Assembly (NCBI GenBank): GCA_002923215.1
Contig: BDTI01000175.1
Span: forward strand, 1 to 33,485
DNA from: an archaeon BMS3Abin16
GTDB taxonomy: Archaea; Hydrothermarchaeota; Hydrothermarchaeia; Hydrothermarchaeales; SZUA-236
Length of the DNA: 33,485 nucleotides
Reading direction: 5' to 3'
A program made the translations under genes and the position numbers. Below are positions 3,337-22,135 of this stretch, one piece after another (the first letter of the stretch is position 1; each line of letters starts with the position of its first letter). The notes beneath the pieces are model-generated. The model saw only the letters and a program-made list of their open reading frames with translations, was not told where the DNA came from and ran no database searches.

Positions 3337-3494
3337 ACCTACTTGCTTTTTTGTTCACCTGTCAGTATAAAAAATTTGCCGTTAAATACCTGTTTTTTGG
3401 AAAAATTTTTCACCGTTTACCGCAATCATGGAAAAATCCTTTCGAAAAATAAGGCAGAATCAAACTTATTTTCAAAAAAAAAGCAACGGTTACG

Positions 3495-3502
3495 TTTATA
3501 TA
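3495..3502 (+). promoter_or_regulatory. TATA-box candidate (TTTATATA) for the downstream membrane-protein gene
   Basis: Perfect match to the archaeal TATA consensus TTTAWATA in the AT-rich intergenic region. It is centred about 22 nt upstream of the ATG at 3521 and about 53 nt upstream of 3552. Confidence 0.3.
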
Positions 3503-3551
3503 ATAGTAAACTCCAAAAAAATGAAGGAAAAGGGAAAAAGGAGGTCTATTC

Positions 3552-4133
3552 ATAGTCCAAACAATTGTAACAGTCGCCACCTTCGCACTCATCGGAGGCG
3601 GAATAAAATACATAGACGAAGCATTCGACGAAAAAATCTACAGCCAAAAAATAGCAACCGCTATAGCCGCGATACTGCTCGTGCTCTGGATAGGAATCTC
3701 AATACTAGACACAACAGCAGCAACAATACTGCTCTCAGTACTCCTCGGCGTGCTGTTCACAGGCAAAATAGACAACACAGTCTTCGGAGCAAGCACATCA
3801 GCAATCGTCGTGTCACTGGCATTCCTAGAAAAAGTGATATTCCTCCCACTCCTAGCCCTAACAATCACAGGCATAATCGACGAAAAAGGAAACGACTACG
3901 TCGACAGCCACAAAACAAACAAGGTCATAGCATTCTTTTTCCTACATAGATTCACCATGAAAATAGGCCTCCTCACACTCAGCCTGGCCGGAATCTTTGC
4001 TATACAGTACATGCTCGCATTTCTGCTCTTCGACATATCCTATGACACAGTAGGATTTTTCAGCGGTGAATCGAAAAAGAAACTGGAACTCAGAAACATC
4101 AATTCTGAAACACCACACCCCCAGACAGCGTAA
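3552..4133 (+). CDS. Polytopic membrane protein of unknown family; start codon unresolved (conservative GTG start at 3681)
   Basis: Frame 3 is open from 3525 to TAA at 4131-4133. From about 3552 it encodes clearly hydrophobic helices (VQTIVTVATFALIGGG, IATAIAAILLVLWIGISIL, AATILLSVLLGVLFTG, AIVVSLAFLEKVIFLPLLALTITGII, IGLLTLSLAGIFAIQYMLAFLLF). The first canonical start in this frame is the GTG at 3681, which would cut off two helices. AGGAGGT at 3539-3545 lies 6 nt before an ATA codon at 3552. Confidence 0.6.
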   Translation: MVQTIVTVATFALIGGGIKYIDEAFDEKIYSQKIATAIAAILLVLWIGISILDTTAATILLSVLLGVLFTGKIDNTVFGASTSAIVVSLAFLEKVIFLPLLALTITGIIDEKGNDYVDSHKTNKVIAFFFLHRFTMKIGLLTLSLAGIFAIQYMLAFLLFDISYDTVGFFSGESKKKLELRNINSETPHPQTA

Positions 4134-4199: not shown

Positions 4200-4919
4200 A
4201 TGACATCAAATGGAATAATACTTCTAAGCAGCGGGCTTGACAGCGCAACGGCAATGTGGAAGGTTAAAGACAACTATAAAGACATATACACACTTACATT
4301 CGCCTACGGTTCCCGCGACGAAGACGTGGCTCTTTCCTGCGCTGAAAAACTCTCAACCCTTGCAGGCGCAAAGCATCATGTAATCAGTCTACCATGGCTG
4401 CAGGATTTTTCAAGTCGCAGCGGATCAACCCTGATTTCAACAAGCGGGGATCTTCCAACACCCACAGAGGATGAACTTGACAAGGCCAGCGCAGCATCTG
4501 AATCTGCAAAATCAGTGTGGATTCCAGCGCGTAACCTCGTCTTTCTATCAGTCGCTGCATCCTTTGCAGAATCAATCGGCGGAGGAGAGATAATCACAGG
4601 CTTTAACCGGGAGGAGGCAGCCACCTTCCCAGATAATACAGCCTCCTTTGTCTCAGCAATGAACAGTGTCCTGGAGTATGCTGTGCTCGAAAAAAATGTC
4701 AGCGTTGTAGCGCCGCTCAGGAGAATGGATAAATCTGAGATTGCCGGGCTTGCCGTTGATCTAGGGGCGCCAGTGGAATATATGTCGTCCTGCTACATGC
4801 CGCAGGGCCTTGACAGAGAGAGGAGGCCGGTTCACTGCGGACGGTGTGAGTCATGCAGGCGGCGGATGCGCGCCTTCAAAGCCGCCGGTGTTTCTGACAA
4901 AACCATCTACGAGCCTTGA
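4200..4919 (+). CDS. queC: 7-cyano-7-deazaguanine synthase (preQ0 / archaeosine pathway)
   Basis: 239 aa. The N-terminus has the PP-loop LLSSGLDSATAM. The C-terminus has the zinc cysteine cluster SCY...CGRCESCRRR, characteristic of QueC. Confidence 0.9.
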   Translation: MTSNGIILLSSGLDSATAMWKVKDNYKDIYTLTFAYGSRDEDVALSCAEKLSTLAGAKHHVISLPWLQDFSSRSGSTLISTSGDLPTPTEDELDKASAASESAKSVWIPARNLVFLSVAASFAESIGGGEIITGFNREEAATFPDNTASFVSAMNSVLEYAVLEKNVSVVAPLRRMDKSEIAGLAVDLGAPVEYMSSCYMPQGLDRERRPVHCGRCESCRRRMRAFKAAGVSDKTIYEP

Positions 4920-5179
4920 CTGCGTCTAACAATCTCAGCGCAGAAATCAGCCTTGTCTGTAACATCCAGGTTTTCAGCCAGATATTTGCACACAGTATTA
5001 TAGGTCTCGTTTATGTTCTCATAGTATTGCCTGTAGAGCACGTCATATGACATCTTTCGATAGGATACCGCAAATATCAGGGCTGCAAGCATCGCCGCGC
5101 CAACCAGGAGCAGATACTCGATTGATGCCTGAGCCTGTTCTTCAACTATAAATCCACGTAGCTTTTTCATACTTATCAT
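4907..5179 (-). CDS. Class III signal peptide-containing protein (archaeal type IV pilin-like)
   Basis: Starting at M45 of the tracked ORF (ATG 5179-5177, or ATG 5170-5168) gives MISMKKLRGFIVEEQAQASIEYLLLVGAAMLAALIF. The QASIEYLLLVG block matches the class III signal peptide signature (QxSxEYLLL). The ATG lies 1 nt after the stop of the upstream gene (5181-5183). The longer 134-aa version would overlap that gene and is rejected. Confidence 0.7.
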   Translation of the reverse strand: MISMKKLRGFIVEEQAQASIEYLLLVGAAMLAALIFAVSYRKMSYDVLYRQYYENINETYNTVCKYLAENLDVTDKADFCAEIVRRSQGS

Positions 5180-5180
5180 C

Positions 5181-6143
5181 TTAAAGCAGCCTCCAAGCCT
5201 CTTCGGCCAGGTCATTATAATTGTTTGCAATGCCTGCAAGATCAACTGCGTCTTCCACTGCCTTAACGGCAAGTTCAGGGTCGCCGTAGAGTGACTGTTC
5301 ACTGCTTTCAATCATCTTCCTGCTTACTTCTTCCCAGACTGCGAAGAATCTGCCTTTGTTTTGAAAGTAAATATTCATCTTGCCGGATCTGCTCGAAGCC
5401 GCAAGATCCGCTGTCTCCTTGGCTTGATTAAAAAAGGCGGCGGCCGTTGCATACTCTTTGACCGCGCCCAGGTACTCGCCCTGCGTGTAATAGTTGTTGC
5501 CGGCGATATAGTGGTTGCGGGCGATTACATAGCTTCTGATTATCTCACGGTCATATGGTGTTTTCCTCCAAAAAGCACCCAGATAGATGGAGAAGATAAG
5601 GAGAAAAACGATTAGAACTACTGCAACCATTCTGAAGTCTATTACAAGTTCTTTTTTGCGTTTCTCCCGCTTTTTAGGTTTAAACCGGTCAAGCTCCGCC
5701 TCATGTTCTAAGGCAGATGGAACGATGTCAACTCCGTTTTCCTCCGCAAGCTGAATATATATTCCAAGTTCGGAGAGCCGCCGGTTCTCAGCGATTACCC
5801 TGTGCTTTGCAGAGAGATACTCAATCTGGGCGGAGAGGATTTTTTCGATCCGCCGGTATTTGGCAAGCTCAATATAGTTATCTGGCAGGTTGTTAATGTT
5901 TCTCTCAAGCTCGGCGAGAAGCGCTTTTTTCTTGCTCAGCACGAAATCGATCTGTGCGAGCACATCAGGCGACTCGAGAGAGTTTCCGCCTGCAAGCAAA
6001 TATTTCGCCTCTGTTTTAAGGAGCGCAAGTTTTGCCGCGAGAAAATCAGCTTCATTCTCATCGCCCTTCGCCCTGGACACCTTTAAATGTTCTTCTGTCA
6101 GCCCGATCTTTTGAATAAGAATGTCAACTTCATCCTCTGGCAT
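5181..6143 (-). CDS. Bitopic membrane protein: N-terminal coiled-coil domain, one TM helix, C-terminal helical (TPR-like) domain; hypothetical
   Basis: 320-aa ORF. About 170 aa of heptad-like charged sequence ends in a KPKKREKRKKE cluster. The TM helix MVAVVLIVFLLIFSIYLGAFW follows, then YIAGNNYYTQGEYLGAVKEYATAAAFFNQAKE, which resembles a TPR hairpin. The ORF overlaps the upstream gene by 14 nt. Confidence 0.75.
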   Translation of the reverse strand: MPEDEVDILIQKIGLTEEHLKVSRAKGDENEADFLAAKLALLKTEAKYLLAGGNSLESPDVLAQIDFVLSKKKALLAELERNINNLPDNYIELAKYRRIEKILSAQIEYLSAKHRVIAENRRLSELGIYIQLAEENGVDIVPSALEHEAELDRFKPKKREKRKKELVIDFRMVAVVLIVFLLIFSIYLGAFWRKTPYDREIIRSYVIARNHYIAGNNYYTQGEYLGAVKEYATAAAFFNQAKETADLAASSRSGKMNIYFQNKGRFFAVWEEVSRKMIESSEQSLYGDPELAVKAVEDAVDLAGIANNYNDLAEEAWRLL

Positions 6144-6669
6144 AGATTACCTCCCTGATCGCGAATTTATGCTCTCTGCTTTTCAGCCCCCGACGCCATA
6201 AAATTAGGGCGGCTATTGGCAGAATCGGGTAAAAGATCCGGTCAACAGTTGAAAGAAGTGAGGGCTCAGCCGATGCTATTAGAAGCTCGATTATTATTCG
6301 GACCTGATTCACAGCCAAGAGTAGGAGTGACGACCAAAAAACCCATTTTAACCGGTCCCCGATCGGGAGGCGTGGCGTGAAAGATACGAGGATTACAAAT
6401 GCCCCGATCGTGAGCAGACCGAAACAGTAGGGCGAGTATTCAACGATTGCGCCTGACGAAAGTCTGAGCAGGTTTGACTGTGACCACGCCTCTATTCCAA
6501 TGGCTGCGAGCAATTGCTCGTGAATGGCTGCGTTCACTGTGCCGAGAAGTGTCAGCGTTTTTGAAACAATGCGGATGCTAAGCAGCATTGGCGGGACATA
6601 GTAAAAGGTTAGAAATGAAGCTGCGAACACAGCGATCAGCGTCTGAGCCGATGGGTAGTCTTCTTTCAT
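6130..6669 (-). CDS. Small polytopic membrane protein, putatively exosortase/archaeosortase-like (divergent, about 179 aa)
   Basis: It has five predicted hydrophobic helices. IVEYSPYCFGLLTIGAFVIL fits the sortase Cys block (xCxG at the start of a helix). LLLLAVNQVRIIIELL fits the NxxRI arginine block. I could not locate the usual downstream histidine. The ATG at 6669-6667 overlaps the TGA (6668-6666) of the upstream peptide gene as ATGA. The CDS itself is well supported; the family assignment is tentative. Confidence 0.45.
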   Translation of the reverse strand: MKEDYPSAQTLIAVFAASFLTFYYVPPMLLSIRIVSKTLTLLGTVNAAIHEQLLAAIGIEAWSQSNLLRLSSGAIVEYSPYCFGLLTIGAFVILVSFTPRLPIGDRLKWVFWSSLLLLAVNQVRIIIELLIASAEPSLLSTVDRIFYPILPIAALILWRRGLKSREHKFAIREVIYARG

Positions 6670-6887
6670 CCCGCGCGGCGCCCCTGCTTCCATAGTGTGT
6701 ACACCCCATATCCGACGATAGCAGTCACTGTTAACAGATTCCCCTCCGGTATGGCAACGGCCGGCGGGACTGGAAGCGTTGTTGTAGTCTGTGAAAAAAC
6801 AGCCTGAGTATTAAGCAGTACTATGAAAAAGGCCCAAAAGATAGATTTAAGATAAACAGTTCTAAGAGTTCTGTTCATATCCAACAC
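6666..6887 (-). CDS. 73-aa secreted peptide precursor: Sec-type signal peptide, Thr/Pro linker and a PEP-CTERM-like (PEG + TM + basic) C-terminal sorting signal
   Basis: Translation is MLDMNRTLRTVYLKSIFWAFFIVLLNTQAVFSQ|TTTTLPVPPAVAI-PEG-NLLTVTAIVGYGVYTLW-KQGRRAG. The N-terminus has n/h/c regions. The C-terminus has a Pro-Glu-Gly motif, a 17-aa hydrophobic helix and a basic tail. A TATA box lies 26 nt upstream of the first ATG, and the gene is translationally coupled to the next one. Confidence 0.55.
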   Translation of the reverse strand: MLDMNRTLRTVYLKSIFWAFFIVLLNTQAVFSQTTTTLPVPPAVAIPEGNLLTVTAIVGYGVYTLWKQGRRAG

Positions 6888-6909: not shown

Positions 6910-6917
6910 TATATAAA
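6910..6917 (-). promoter_or_regulatory. TATA box (TTTATATA on the minus strand) for the 6887-4907 operon; implies a leaderless transcript
   Basis: Plus-strand TATATAAA at 6910-6917 reverse-complements to the consensus TTTATATA. It is centred 26-27 nt upstream of the ATG at 6887 and lies 2 nt after the alaS stop codon. Confidence 0.4.
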
Positions 6918-19509: not shown

Positions 19510-19842
19510 TTATCTTGTGAGTTTAACACCCCAGTAAAATGCCACAAAAATCGCCACTAGCAAGAGTGGGATCACGATAAATGGGGATCTTGCGATTTCA
19601 ACTGCCTGGGCGAGTACAGTTCCCGCCGTGCCTGTGACTATGCCTGTGTCCACCTCTGACTGCCGACCGCTGTATTCACTCCAAACCAGAAAGAGCGCTC
19701 CAATCATCAAAACACCCGCAAAGAGTGTGAAAAGCGTTTTTCGACCTCTCTGCCCCTTTAAAACCTGAGACTCACATTCCATGCATAGAGGAGACCCTTG
19801 CGTAGATTTGCCACATATCTGACACTTATTCATAGGCTTCAT
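19510..19842 (-). CDS. Zinc-ribbon membrane protein (hypothetical)
   Basis: 110 aa. CQICGKSTQGSPLCMEC is a CxxC-x9-CxxC ribbon. It is followed by two hydrophobic helices. Its ATG overlaps the TGA of the upstream gene as ATGA at 19842-19839. Confidence 0.6.
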   Translation of the reverse strand: MKPMNKCQICGKSTQGSPLCMECESQVLKGQRGRKTLFTLFAGVLMIGALFLVWSEYSGRQSEVDTGIVTGTAGTVLAQAVEIARSPFIVIPLLLVAIFVAFYWGVKLTR

Positions 19843-20234
19843 TTTTTATTGAGATAATAATAGACTGTTGTAAGCGGTATGCCGAGGTCCTTTGAAATCT
19901 TCTTTGCACTGTAGCCTTTTTTCTTCAAGCCATATATGCCGTCGATCTTTGTATCAGCATGCATCCTGGGCCTACCCGGTGTGAGCAGAAGCGCTTCAAA
20001 CTTTACACCCACCTTTGAAAGGGCTTCTTTAATCTTTCGCGGCGTGCGCTCAAAAAGGCTCGGCGGACATGTGATAAGCTTAATCTTCGGAGCAGCGGTA
20101 AGAATAGATGCAACAATATTTATTGTCGGCCGAACGCTGAGATGCACCTTCTGAACATCAACATTTAGCTTGTCCTTAATCTCCTGCAGAAGAACCTCGT
20201 TTTGACTCGACCGAAGAACAATAATCTCCTCCAT
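19839..20234 (-). CDS. Hypothetical protein with a C-terminal HTH (possibly the archaeal DUF1699 family)
   Basis: 131 aa. The C-terminus GYSAKKISKDLGIPLTTVYYYLNKK is a resolvase/Hin-type HTH. The family name is from memory and is unverified. Confidence 0.6.
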   Translation of the reverse strand: MEEIIVLRSSQNEVLLQEIKDKLNVDVQKVHLSVRPTINIVASILTAAPKIKLITCPPSLFERTPRKIKEALSKVGVKFEALLLTPGRPRMHADTKIDGIYGLKKKGYSAKKISKDLGIPLTTVYYYLNKK

Positions 20235-21532: not shown

Positions 21533-22135
21533 TTATTCTATATAATTATTATTGTCACCGACGATTTCCTCTTCTTCCACATACCAGTCTCTGCTTGCCA
21601 TGTATCCTGCGATGAATCCGATGATAAGTCCTACGAGGTGTGCGAGAAAACCGGTTGCCGCTGCGAGGAAAAAGAAGACAAAGCCGTAGAGCATCGAGCT
21701 CCATATGCCGTTTGTGTAGACTCCGCGTTGAGCTGAGAGGTCTGCTCCAAGCAGGCCGTATATCGCGCCTGACGACCCGGCTGATATCGTGTCCAGAGGA
21801 TAGAGGAATGAGACAGATGTGGTTGCAAGTCCGAACAATAGGTAGAATAAAAGTGTTCGGCTTCGTCCGAATAGAGCTTCTGCCTTGGATCCGAAGAATG
21901 CGAGAAACAACATGTTATAGCCCAAGTGCGGGAAGTCGAAGTGTGTGAACATGTTCGTAACTATCTGATAGTACGCGCCTCCGAGAAACCGTTCAGTTAC
22001 AAAGCCGTATCGCTCCATGAGCCCTGTGTCGATTACCAGTATGTTACGACTCTGAATCGCGAGATAGATGTAGAATAGAATGTTAACTGTGAGCAAGGCA
22101 TATGTTACGATGGGCCGGGACTCGTCTCGCGACAT
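21533..22135 (-). CDS. Rhomboid-family intramembrane serine protease
   Basis: 200 aa with six hydrophobic helices. The TM2 motif is THFDFPHLGYNMLFL (HxxxxHxxxN). The catalytic GxSG is AGSSGAIYGL. The catalytic His block is AHLVGLIIG. Confidence 0.85.
   Translation of the reverse strand: MSRDESRPIVTYALLTVNILFYIYLAIQSRNILVIDTGLMERYGFVTERFLGGAYYQIVTNMFTHFDFPHLGYNMLFLAFFGSKAEALFGRSRTLLFYLLFGLATTSVSFLYPLDTISAGSSGAIYGLLGADLSAQRGVYTNGIWSSMLYGFVFFFLAAATGFLAHLVGLIIGFIAGYMASRDWYVEEEEIVGDNNNYIE

Follow-up and report, generated by a model that had tools for sequence, protein, structure and literature searches.

A putative archaeosortase-type enzyme and a precursor peptide reduced almost to its sorting signals, encoded in a conserved four-gene archaeal cassette

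Exosortases and archaeosortases are known for anchoring large surface proteins, and archaeosortase A (ArtA) is, to our knowledge, the only archaeosortase that has been studied experimentally. In Haloferax volcanii, this polytopic membrane cysteine enzyme cleaves and lipid-anchors PGF-CTERM proteins, in which a signature motif, transmembrane helix and basic tail give way to a lipid anchor (PMC6098224; PMC7157517). Its substrates, which number from one to 52, are large and include the S-layer glycoprotein (PMC6098224). Here we describe a pair of overlapping genes from the archaeon BMS3Abin16 (contig BDTI01000175.1; the window, in what follows, is the whole 33,485-nt stretch analyzed) in which a precursor peptide made up almost entirely of sorting signals (gene 1) is followed by a 179-residue membrane protein (gene 2). 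We favor, with some reserve, a reading of this pair as a dedicated one-enzyme/one-substrate system that would constitute a new, narrowly distributed exosortase/archaeosortase subfamily with a new sorting signal, PEGN-CTERM.

Several other described systems resemble this locus in part. In the exosortase A systems (XrtA, EpsH), a Pro-Glu-x motif likewise abuts the helix of the PEP-CTERM tail, basic residues come next, and the enzyme belongs to a homologous family (Haft preprint). These systems differ from the present one in being bacterial, in having an 8-helix enzyme and many targets per genome, and in their association with exopolysaccharide loci; the PEP-CTERM model gave no match to our peptide. 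Closer in size to gene 2 are exosortase X and the short forms XrtH, XrtM, XrtY, ArtB, ArtE, ArtF and pacearchaeosortase, which share with it a length of roughly 150–170 residues, a Cys...N-x-x-R core and the dimensions of a five-helix protein. Since the NCBIfam models for ArtB, ArtD, ArtE, ArtF, XrtH, XrtX and pacearchaeosortase span just 150–168 positions, the small size of the enzyme, which had been put forward as part of a new variant, is not in itself new. The closest parallel to the locus as a whole is archaeosortase D with its PIP-CTERM signal, which combines a short archaeosortase (the TIGR04175 ArtD model has 150 positions) with a C-terminal sorting signal and, according to the NCBIfam name of TIGR04205, a small protein with a class III signal peptide. 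ArtD systems are also said to have a single target.

Gene 1 lies at 6666–6878 on the reverse strand, as do all four genes of the cassette and the elements described within them. The original prediction had recognized this open reading frame (ORF) as a 73-residue precursor, which is its longest reading (6666–6887, from a GTG). The ATG at 6878 is the likelier start, because the 70-residue protein P0027 and all orthologues begin at this position; it falls about 30 nt downstream of the TATA-box-like sequence TTTATATA. The precursor would thus have 70 residues, arranged as an N-terminal signal peptide MNRTLRTVYLKSIFWAFFIVLLNTQAVFS, a linker QTTTTLPVPPAVAI, the motif PEGN, a helix LLTVTAIVGYGVYTLW and the tail KQGRRAG. 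This is the tripartite layout that had been proposed, apart from the linker, which has 14 residues rather than 16, and the helix, which has 16 rather than 17.

The putative Sec-type signal peptide (residues 1–29; 6792–6878), as read from the sequence, combines a basic n-region with an h-region of 11 residues and a c-region that ends in AVFS and is followed by Gln. At the predicted cleavage site, 14 of 15 homologues (all but P0037) have Ser or Gly at position −1 and Val, Ala, Ser or Gly at position −3, and we infer that the N-terminus carries a cleaved Sec-type signal. The presumed mature core (6750–6791) is Thr/Pro-rich and conserved only in the PP..A(V/I) part adjoining PEGN; the presumed mature peptide would read Q/pyroGlu-TTTTLPVPPAVAIPEG. 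The PEGN motif itself (6738–6749; P44, E45, G46 and N47) is invariant in 15 of 15 homologues and abuts the C-terminal transmembrane helix (6690–6737), in which a Thr, a Val, a Gly and a Trp are invariant. The basic tail (6669–6689), assigned to the cytoplasm, keeps a Lys/Arg cluster in all 15 homologues.

The tail of the peptide is conserved far more strongly than the signal peptide, and the gene is under purifying selection, with pairwise ratios of nonsynonymous to synonymous substitution rates (dN/dS) of 0.13–0.43. A profile built from the peptides and searched against 5.8 billion proteins retrieved 15 proteins with the PEGN tail, all of 60–95 residues. No large protein with this tail was among the matches, and no other ORF in the 33-kb window ends in such a tail. 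A pattern scan of the GTDB species-representative genomes for the peptide returned pattern matches, the queries being too short for confirmation by tblastn.

Two variants of the peptide depart from the common form. In one sublineage (L008, 8001–8264, and L016, 5–223), an acidic, Cys-containing sequence of 40–50 residues takes the place of the core, with a stretch of 25–45 residues (EEEEEDCCPPGEGVCYEGGEPLPPC; EEPEVEEPEVEEPEG...C...C) separating the signal peptide from the PP..VPEGN tail; the passenger is therefore variable and the tail fixed. In L006 (8150–8300) and L007, two samples of a single variant, the last peptide codons contain a 1-nt indel that changes WKKGRKEG to WKKEGGKVE. The sortase ORF in these loci is intact from a TTG, and the gene caller chose a downstream ATG (148 aa, P0006).

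Gene 2 (6130–6669) encodes a 179-residue polytopic membrane protein. Its assignment to the exosortase/archaeosortase families, suggested earlier from the arrangement of a few residues, holds at the level of the family and falls just short for the window protein taken alone, which scores 21.7 bits with the TIGR04178 signature against a cut-off of 23. The best-scoring specific model is exosortase X (NF046081; E = 2.2e-5, 24.4 bits against a cut-off of 170), and there are weak matches to pacearchaeosortase, ArtD (13.2 bits against 125) and ArtH. With the longer, 187-aa reading of gene 2 as the query, a search of 5.8 billion proteins found just seven relatives, 46–99% identical. A family profile searched against 1.84 billion representative proteins reached further, to 17 proteins at E ≤ 0.001; a third homologue search from a mixed alignment (A2), in which 8000 candidates were scored, added little. 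When ten of the 17 (P0008–P0010 and P0013–P0019) were scanned, all matched exosortase/archaeosortase models, and eight, among them the close relative P0010 (28.2 bits against 23), passed the TIGR04178 cut-off. The distant relatives have 165–208 residues, and the seven of them that were scanned all lie above this cut-off; it is on these alone that the ArtA model, with its 271 positions, scores (about 17–22 bits). Within the gene 2 clade, 7 of 10 members match TIGR04178 at E ≤ 0.01 and 2 of 10 match PF09721. Finally, hhalign aligned the clade with the TIGR04178-passing proteins over 151 columns at 99.65% probability (E = 3.5e-25), with Cys against Cys and N..R against N..R. Gene 2 is therefore very probably a divergent exosortase/archaeosortase homologue. 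Its membership of the superfamily is well supported by these sequence comparisons, and its placement in any named subfamily is not supported.

One further match to the family profile is P0022, a protein of 1102 residues encoded outside the window, whose residues 18–185 resemble a sortase-type domain (E = 5.9e-4). It is possibly a fusion of a short exosortase-type domain with a large protein.

Across 17 sequences, with identities down to 19%, the only invariant side chains are those of one Gly, Cys82, Asn121 and Arg124 (residue numbers refer to the 179-aa reading). Cys82 (codon at 6424–6426), the presumed nucleophile, belongs to the YSPYCFG block at the outward end of helix 3, and Asn121-Gln-Val-Arg124 (NQxR; 6298–6309) lies in helix 4. 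The two blocks had been picked out beforehand as occupying the positions of the family's catalytic residues, and their Cys, Asn and Arg are in register with the family Cys and N..R by hhalign and invariant in 17 of 17 sequences. YSPYCFG and NQxRI are invariant in all nine cassette loci and in the alignment of the 10-member clade (A5), where the Tyr preceding Cys82 is nearly so. In ArtA, Cys and Arg residues are critical as well, Cys173, Arg214 and Arg253 being the ones demonstrated, with no His among them (PMC9263693). For the family as a whole, a Cys/Arg/His triad has been inferred (Haft preprint).

The His that is expected from this triad had been noted as missing from the window protein, and the wider comparison bears this out. 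The corresponding column is His in 11 of 11 recognized relatives, short exosortase/archaeosortase-type proteins, and Asp (Asp143; codon at 6241–6243) throughout the gene 2 clade, including P0009 and P0010. The chemistry may therefore differ. A second His, His50 in helix 2 (6520–6522), is invariant in the cassette-linked members and absent from P0010, and we mention it, speculatively, as a candidate substitute. Because the remaining conserved features hold, as does the profile match, we regard the clade as a divergent branch of the superfamily despite the Asp.

An AlphaFold2 (AF2) model of the gene 2 protein, computed from an 11-sequence alignment (pLDDT 80, pTM 0.69), contains five long helices. 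Helical segments lie at residues 8–31, 33–56, 80–96, 103–134, 136–146 and 149–172, and a small beta-hairpin at 61–77. In nine orthologues, Lys and Arg residues average 3.2 in loop 3–4 and 4.9 in the C-terminal tail, compared with 0.8 in the loops flanking these, and by the positive-inside rule both basic segments are therefore placed in the cytoplasm; the count leaves the orientation of helices 1 and 2 ambiguous. With this arrangement Cys82 would stand where helix 3 reaches the outer face, Arg124 would lie in the outward half of helix 4 and Asp143 would belong to an outer loop, in agreement with the earlier expectation that the Cys block does not face the cytoplasm. After export of the precursor, PEGN should lie at the level of these three residues, with the basic tail inside.

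The two genes are also bound together by their arrangement. The gene pair occurs in about ten distinct sequence variants, 39–99% identical, counting both loci and database peptides, and in every contig where the context can be read an ORF of 60–87 aa with the identical layout stands directly upstream of the gene 2 homologue, the adjacency that was to be expected of such a pair. The TGA of gene 1 overlaps the ATG of gene 2 (ATGA), as had been noticed in the window, and an NTGA overlap (ATGA, GTGA or TTGA) is found at this junction in 8 of 9 loci. In L002, L008, L009 and L011, gene 2 was called from the start codon in the overlap (GTG or TTG), with no upstream ATG used; these calls, together with the retention of the overlap, make the 187-aa reading from an upstream ATG less likely. 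At the same junction (window 6669–6700; likewise L002, L003, L008, L009 and L011), the codons for Lys-Gly-Arg-Arg/Lys in the peptide tail spell GGAGG-like Shine-Dalgarno motifs about 8–15 nt before the NTGA start of gene 2, so that the tail sequence is doubly constrained. Upstream, a TATATA-type box precedes the peptide start by 25–60 nt in 9 of 9 loci compared. The window copy, TTTATATA (6910–6917), directly follows the stop codon of the alanyl-tRNA synthetase (AlaRS) gene and is the probable promoter of the cassette.

Relatives of gene 2 outside the cassette have similar neighbors. The distant relative P0017 is encoded 4 nt downstream of a 585-aa subtilase (Peptidase_S8 + Big_1; L053, 1739–4127) that ends in VPDISALGFLLMLGGLALVALVPGREESE, a VPD motif with a helix and an Arg tail; this has the look of a second dedicated pair, here with a large target. 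P0023 adjoins a protein of 1808 aa. Tandems of a target followed by a sortase are thus normal among the relatives of gene 2, and what is unusual here is a target almost without a passenger.

These observations can be joined in a simple scheme. The cassette would be transcribed from its own TATA box just past the AlaRS gene, and gene 1 would yield a 70-aa precursor whose N-terminal part is exported by Sec and loses its first 29 residues to signal peptidase I. The C-terminal helix and basic tail would keep the rest of the chain anchored in the membrane, PEGN lying at its outer interface. Translation of gene 2, coupled to that of gene 1, would supply the enzyme, 179 aa long and of the intramembrane cysteine type, whose Cys82, Arg124 and Asp143 would lie within the membrane's outer half. 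A Cys82-dependent cut at or next to PEGN would remove helix and tail, and the new C-terminus would be handed to an acceptor, which, if ArtA is a guide, is most likely a membrane lipid. The product would be a Pro/Thr-rich surface peptide of 14–17 residues, often with Gln first, or, in the sublineage described above, an acidic, Cys-containing peptide of 40–50 residues. Genes 3 and 4 of the cassette would take part in the same process. We consider this sequence of export, two cleavages and transfer somewhat better than an even bet.

In staphylococci, AgrB, a small polytopic membrane cysteine endopeptidase, is encoded beside the short precursor AgrD, and its acyl-enzyme mechanism removes a C-terminal tail to give a small peptide. 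AgrD has neither a Sec signal nor a transmembrane tail, and the likeness to the cassette is a functional analogy only, without sequence relationship. The machinery of the cassette may have another use, in which it matures peptides rather than anchoring proteins: an acyl-enzyme with a Cys/Arg/Asp center, possibly with a relocated His, would make a small bioactive or structural peptide. That product could be a C-terminally lipidated Pro-rich lipopeptide, could be released or cyclized as by AgrB/AgrD, or could be ligated to the gene 4 product as in sortase-built pili. We hold this to be an outside possibility.

Several results weigh against a dedicated enzyme/substrate pair. Taken alone, the window gene 2 protein falls under every curated cut-off and has no match in Pfam, the family His is replaced by Asp, and no CTERM sorting-domain hidden Markov model matched the window peptide (E ≤ 10) or its 15 homologues; what the peptide has in common with PEP-CTERM, PGF-CTERM and PEF-CTERM domains is the general tripartite layout only. 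A search of PDB sequences with the family profile found no match, which leaves nothing solved to compare, and Foldseek matched the AF2 model to the PDB with a best E of 0.55, to V-ATPase c-rings, which is not meaningful. As the PDB holds no resembling structure, we take the structural comparison to be uninformative rather than negative. No RNA run holding the region was found. Strict translational coupling, moreover, suggests equimolar synthesis, which is seen more often between subunits of one complex than between an enzyme and its substrate. This last point leads to the main alternative, that the small protein is not a substrate at all and is instead a stable accessory subunit of the 179-aa protein, held by its C-terminal anchor alone or, if the N-terminal signal stays uncleaved, as a two-helix hairpin; the enzyme would then act on another target, such as unlinked proteins or the pilin-like product of gene 4. 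Synthesis at about 1:1, as NTGA coupling implies, would suit such a subunit, the invariant Thr, Val, Gly and Trp of the peptide helix point to helix-helix packing, and the passenger is so small that no independent function is obvious. Residues are, however, also conserved within the helix of dedicated signals cut by intramembrane proteases (JDVT-CTERM; Haft preprint), and the tail has the exact layout of a tripartite sorting signal, with its invariant motif at the helix boundary. An h-region of only about 11 residues and small conserved residues at −3 and −1 are like those of cleaved signals, and relatives of gene 2 carry a target gene directly upstream. A subunit role therefore strikes us as unlikely, if worth keeping in mind.

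The replacement of His by Asp across the clade, and a score for the window protein just under the signature cut-off, could also mean that gene 2 retains the exosortase fold with its protease activity lost or changed, and that it serves the peptide and its partners as receptor, chaperone or scaffold. We think this improbable: Cys, Asn and Arg are invariant among sequences merely 28–50% identical, which argues that catalysis has been kept, the Asp is itself invariant, a new invariant His50 has appeared in helix 2, and the critical residues of ArtA, Cys173, Arg214 and Arg253, include no His (PMC9263693). Finally, a short ORF without a family match, lying between the genes for AlaRS and a membrane protein, might be a chance ORF or a mis-call. 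The conservation data refute this to near certainty, for the ORF is kept in 15 database variants and in all loci with a conserved C-terminal half, its dN/dS is 0.13–0.43, and conservation extends to the promoter box and the stop/start overlap.

If the dedicated pair is accepted, some of its components are of known kinds, namely the short archaeosortase, the one-target system and the partner with a class III signal peptide. The PEGN signal would be new, because no CTERM model matches it, and so would the subfamily itself, because no curated model reaches its cut-off; new too are the Asp in place of His, a 320-aa partner protein (gene 3, below) and a substrate reduced to its sorting signals. ArtA has large substrates, whereas the cassette would have one, with a passenger of 14–17 residues, and since so little passenger is left, the system must exist for the sake of the processed peptide itself. 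Such a minimal pair would offer a simple model for three questions: where the enzyme cleaves, what accepts the new C-terminus and whether the conserved His is needed.

The peptide and gene 2 are the front half of a conserved four-gene cassette, none of whose genes is recognized by the curated annotation models. The order of peptide, enzyme, 320-aa protein and pilin-like protein is common to L001–L012, L015 and L016. Gene 3 (5181–6143) shares 14 nt with gene 2 in 9 of 9 loci and encodes a single-pass membrane protein of 320 aa. Its N-terminal half is charged and coiled-coil-like (cytoplasmic by charge) and leads through a Lys/Arg-rich stretch into a helix at residues 172–191; the C-terminal domain is all-helical and strongly conserved (WRKTPYD, EYATAAAFF), with weak TPR-like matches. 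Pfam gave no match for it, as for genes 1 and 2, and it falls into no family; a single-sequence AF2 model was poor (pLDDT 64). In L016 (753–1719), gene 3 appears as two ORFs of 198 and 134 aa, through either a frameshift or an assembly error.

Gene 4 (4907–5179, with its ATG at 5179 or 5170) encodes a protein of 87–90 aa whose class III (prepilin-type) signal peptide is of the DUF361 kind. Its motif is EEQA|QASIEYLLL, and QASIEYLLL is preceded by Ala or Gly in 9 of 9 orthologues. The DUF361-type motif has been described as QXSXEXXXL, with Gln at +1 after Gly/Ala and a hydrophobic helix following (PMC2910488), and signal peptides of this type are substrates of EppA-type prepilin peptidases. Two Cys residues are conserved in the mature part. 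The match to PF04021 is below threshold (E = 0.0026, 18.1 bits against a cut-off of 23.7), and TIGR04205 matches 4 of 9 orthologues at E ≥ 0.005 with about 15 bits against a cut-off of 65. Taken with its name, these weak TIGR04205 matches mean that a partnership of a sortase with a pilin-like protein is known in outline from the ArtD/PIP-CTERM system. The two systems are nevertheless distinct, as the scores make plain (13.2 against 125 for ArtD, about 15 at most against 65 for TIGR04205): the cassette has PEGN instead of PIP, Asp for His and an additional 320-aa partner, and it belongs to a lineage related to Hydrothermarchaeota. A second link between short archaeosortases and pili comes from Methanococcus maripaludis, in which the uncharacterized ArtE is genetically required for natural transformation, a process dependent on a type IV-like pilus (PMC10133366). 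The case parallels that of gene 4; any connection between the two systems is speculative, and the ArtE model gave no match to the window gene 2 protein at E ≤ 10.

The window is otherwise an archaeal housekeeping region, with hemA, hemB, AlaRS, queC, aroA, aroC, cdhD and uvrB, and in all cassette loci the cassette is found between AlaRS and queC. The AlaRS is closest, at 55–77% identity, to those of metagenome-assembled genomes labelled Candidatus Hydrothermarchaeota or 'Methanobacteriota archaeon', and the sequencing runs containing the locus come from marine and hydrothermal-vent metagenomes. The cassette, which joins a sortase-type enzyme with a pilin-like protein, comes from a marine and hydrothermal lineage about which little is known. 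Of 185,579 species-representative genomes, a single one (isolate J060) carries gene 2 or gene 3, and P0010 was not found in the genome collection searched. Elsewhere in Hydrothermarchaeota, the regions flanking AlaRS show no synteny and are therefore uninformative on loss or gain of the cassette.

Three other ORFs of the window deserve mention. A 173-aa ORF at 3428–3949, without a Pfam family, is probably outside the cassette because it lies on the opposite (forward) strand; ORFs of 158–210 aa without a Pfam match adjoin queC in L001, L002, L008, L009 and L011 and are comparable to it in size. A 111-aa ORF at 19510–19845 (reverse strand) ends in a strongly hydrophobic helix and KLTR, with no recognizable signature motif. 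At 21533–22135, also on the reverse strand and unlinked to the cassette, the window encodes an intramembrane serine protease of the rhomboid family (PF01694, E = 1e-23).

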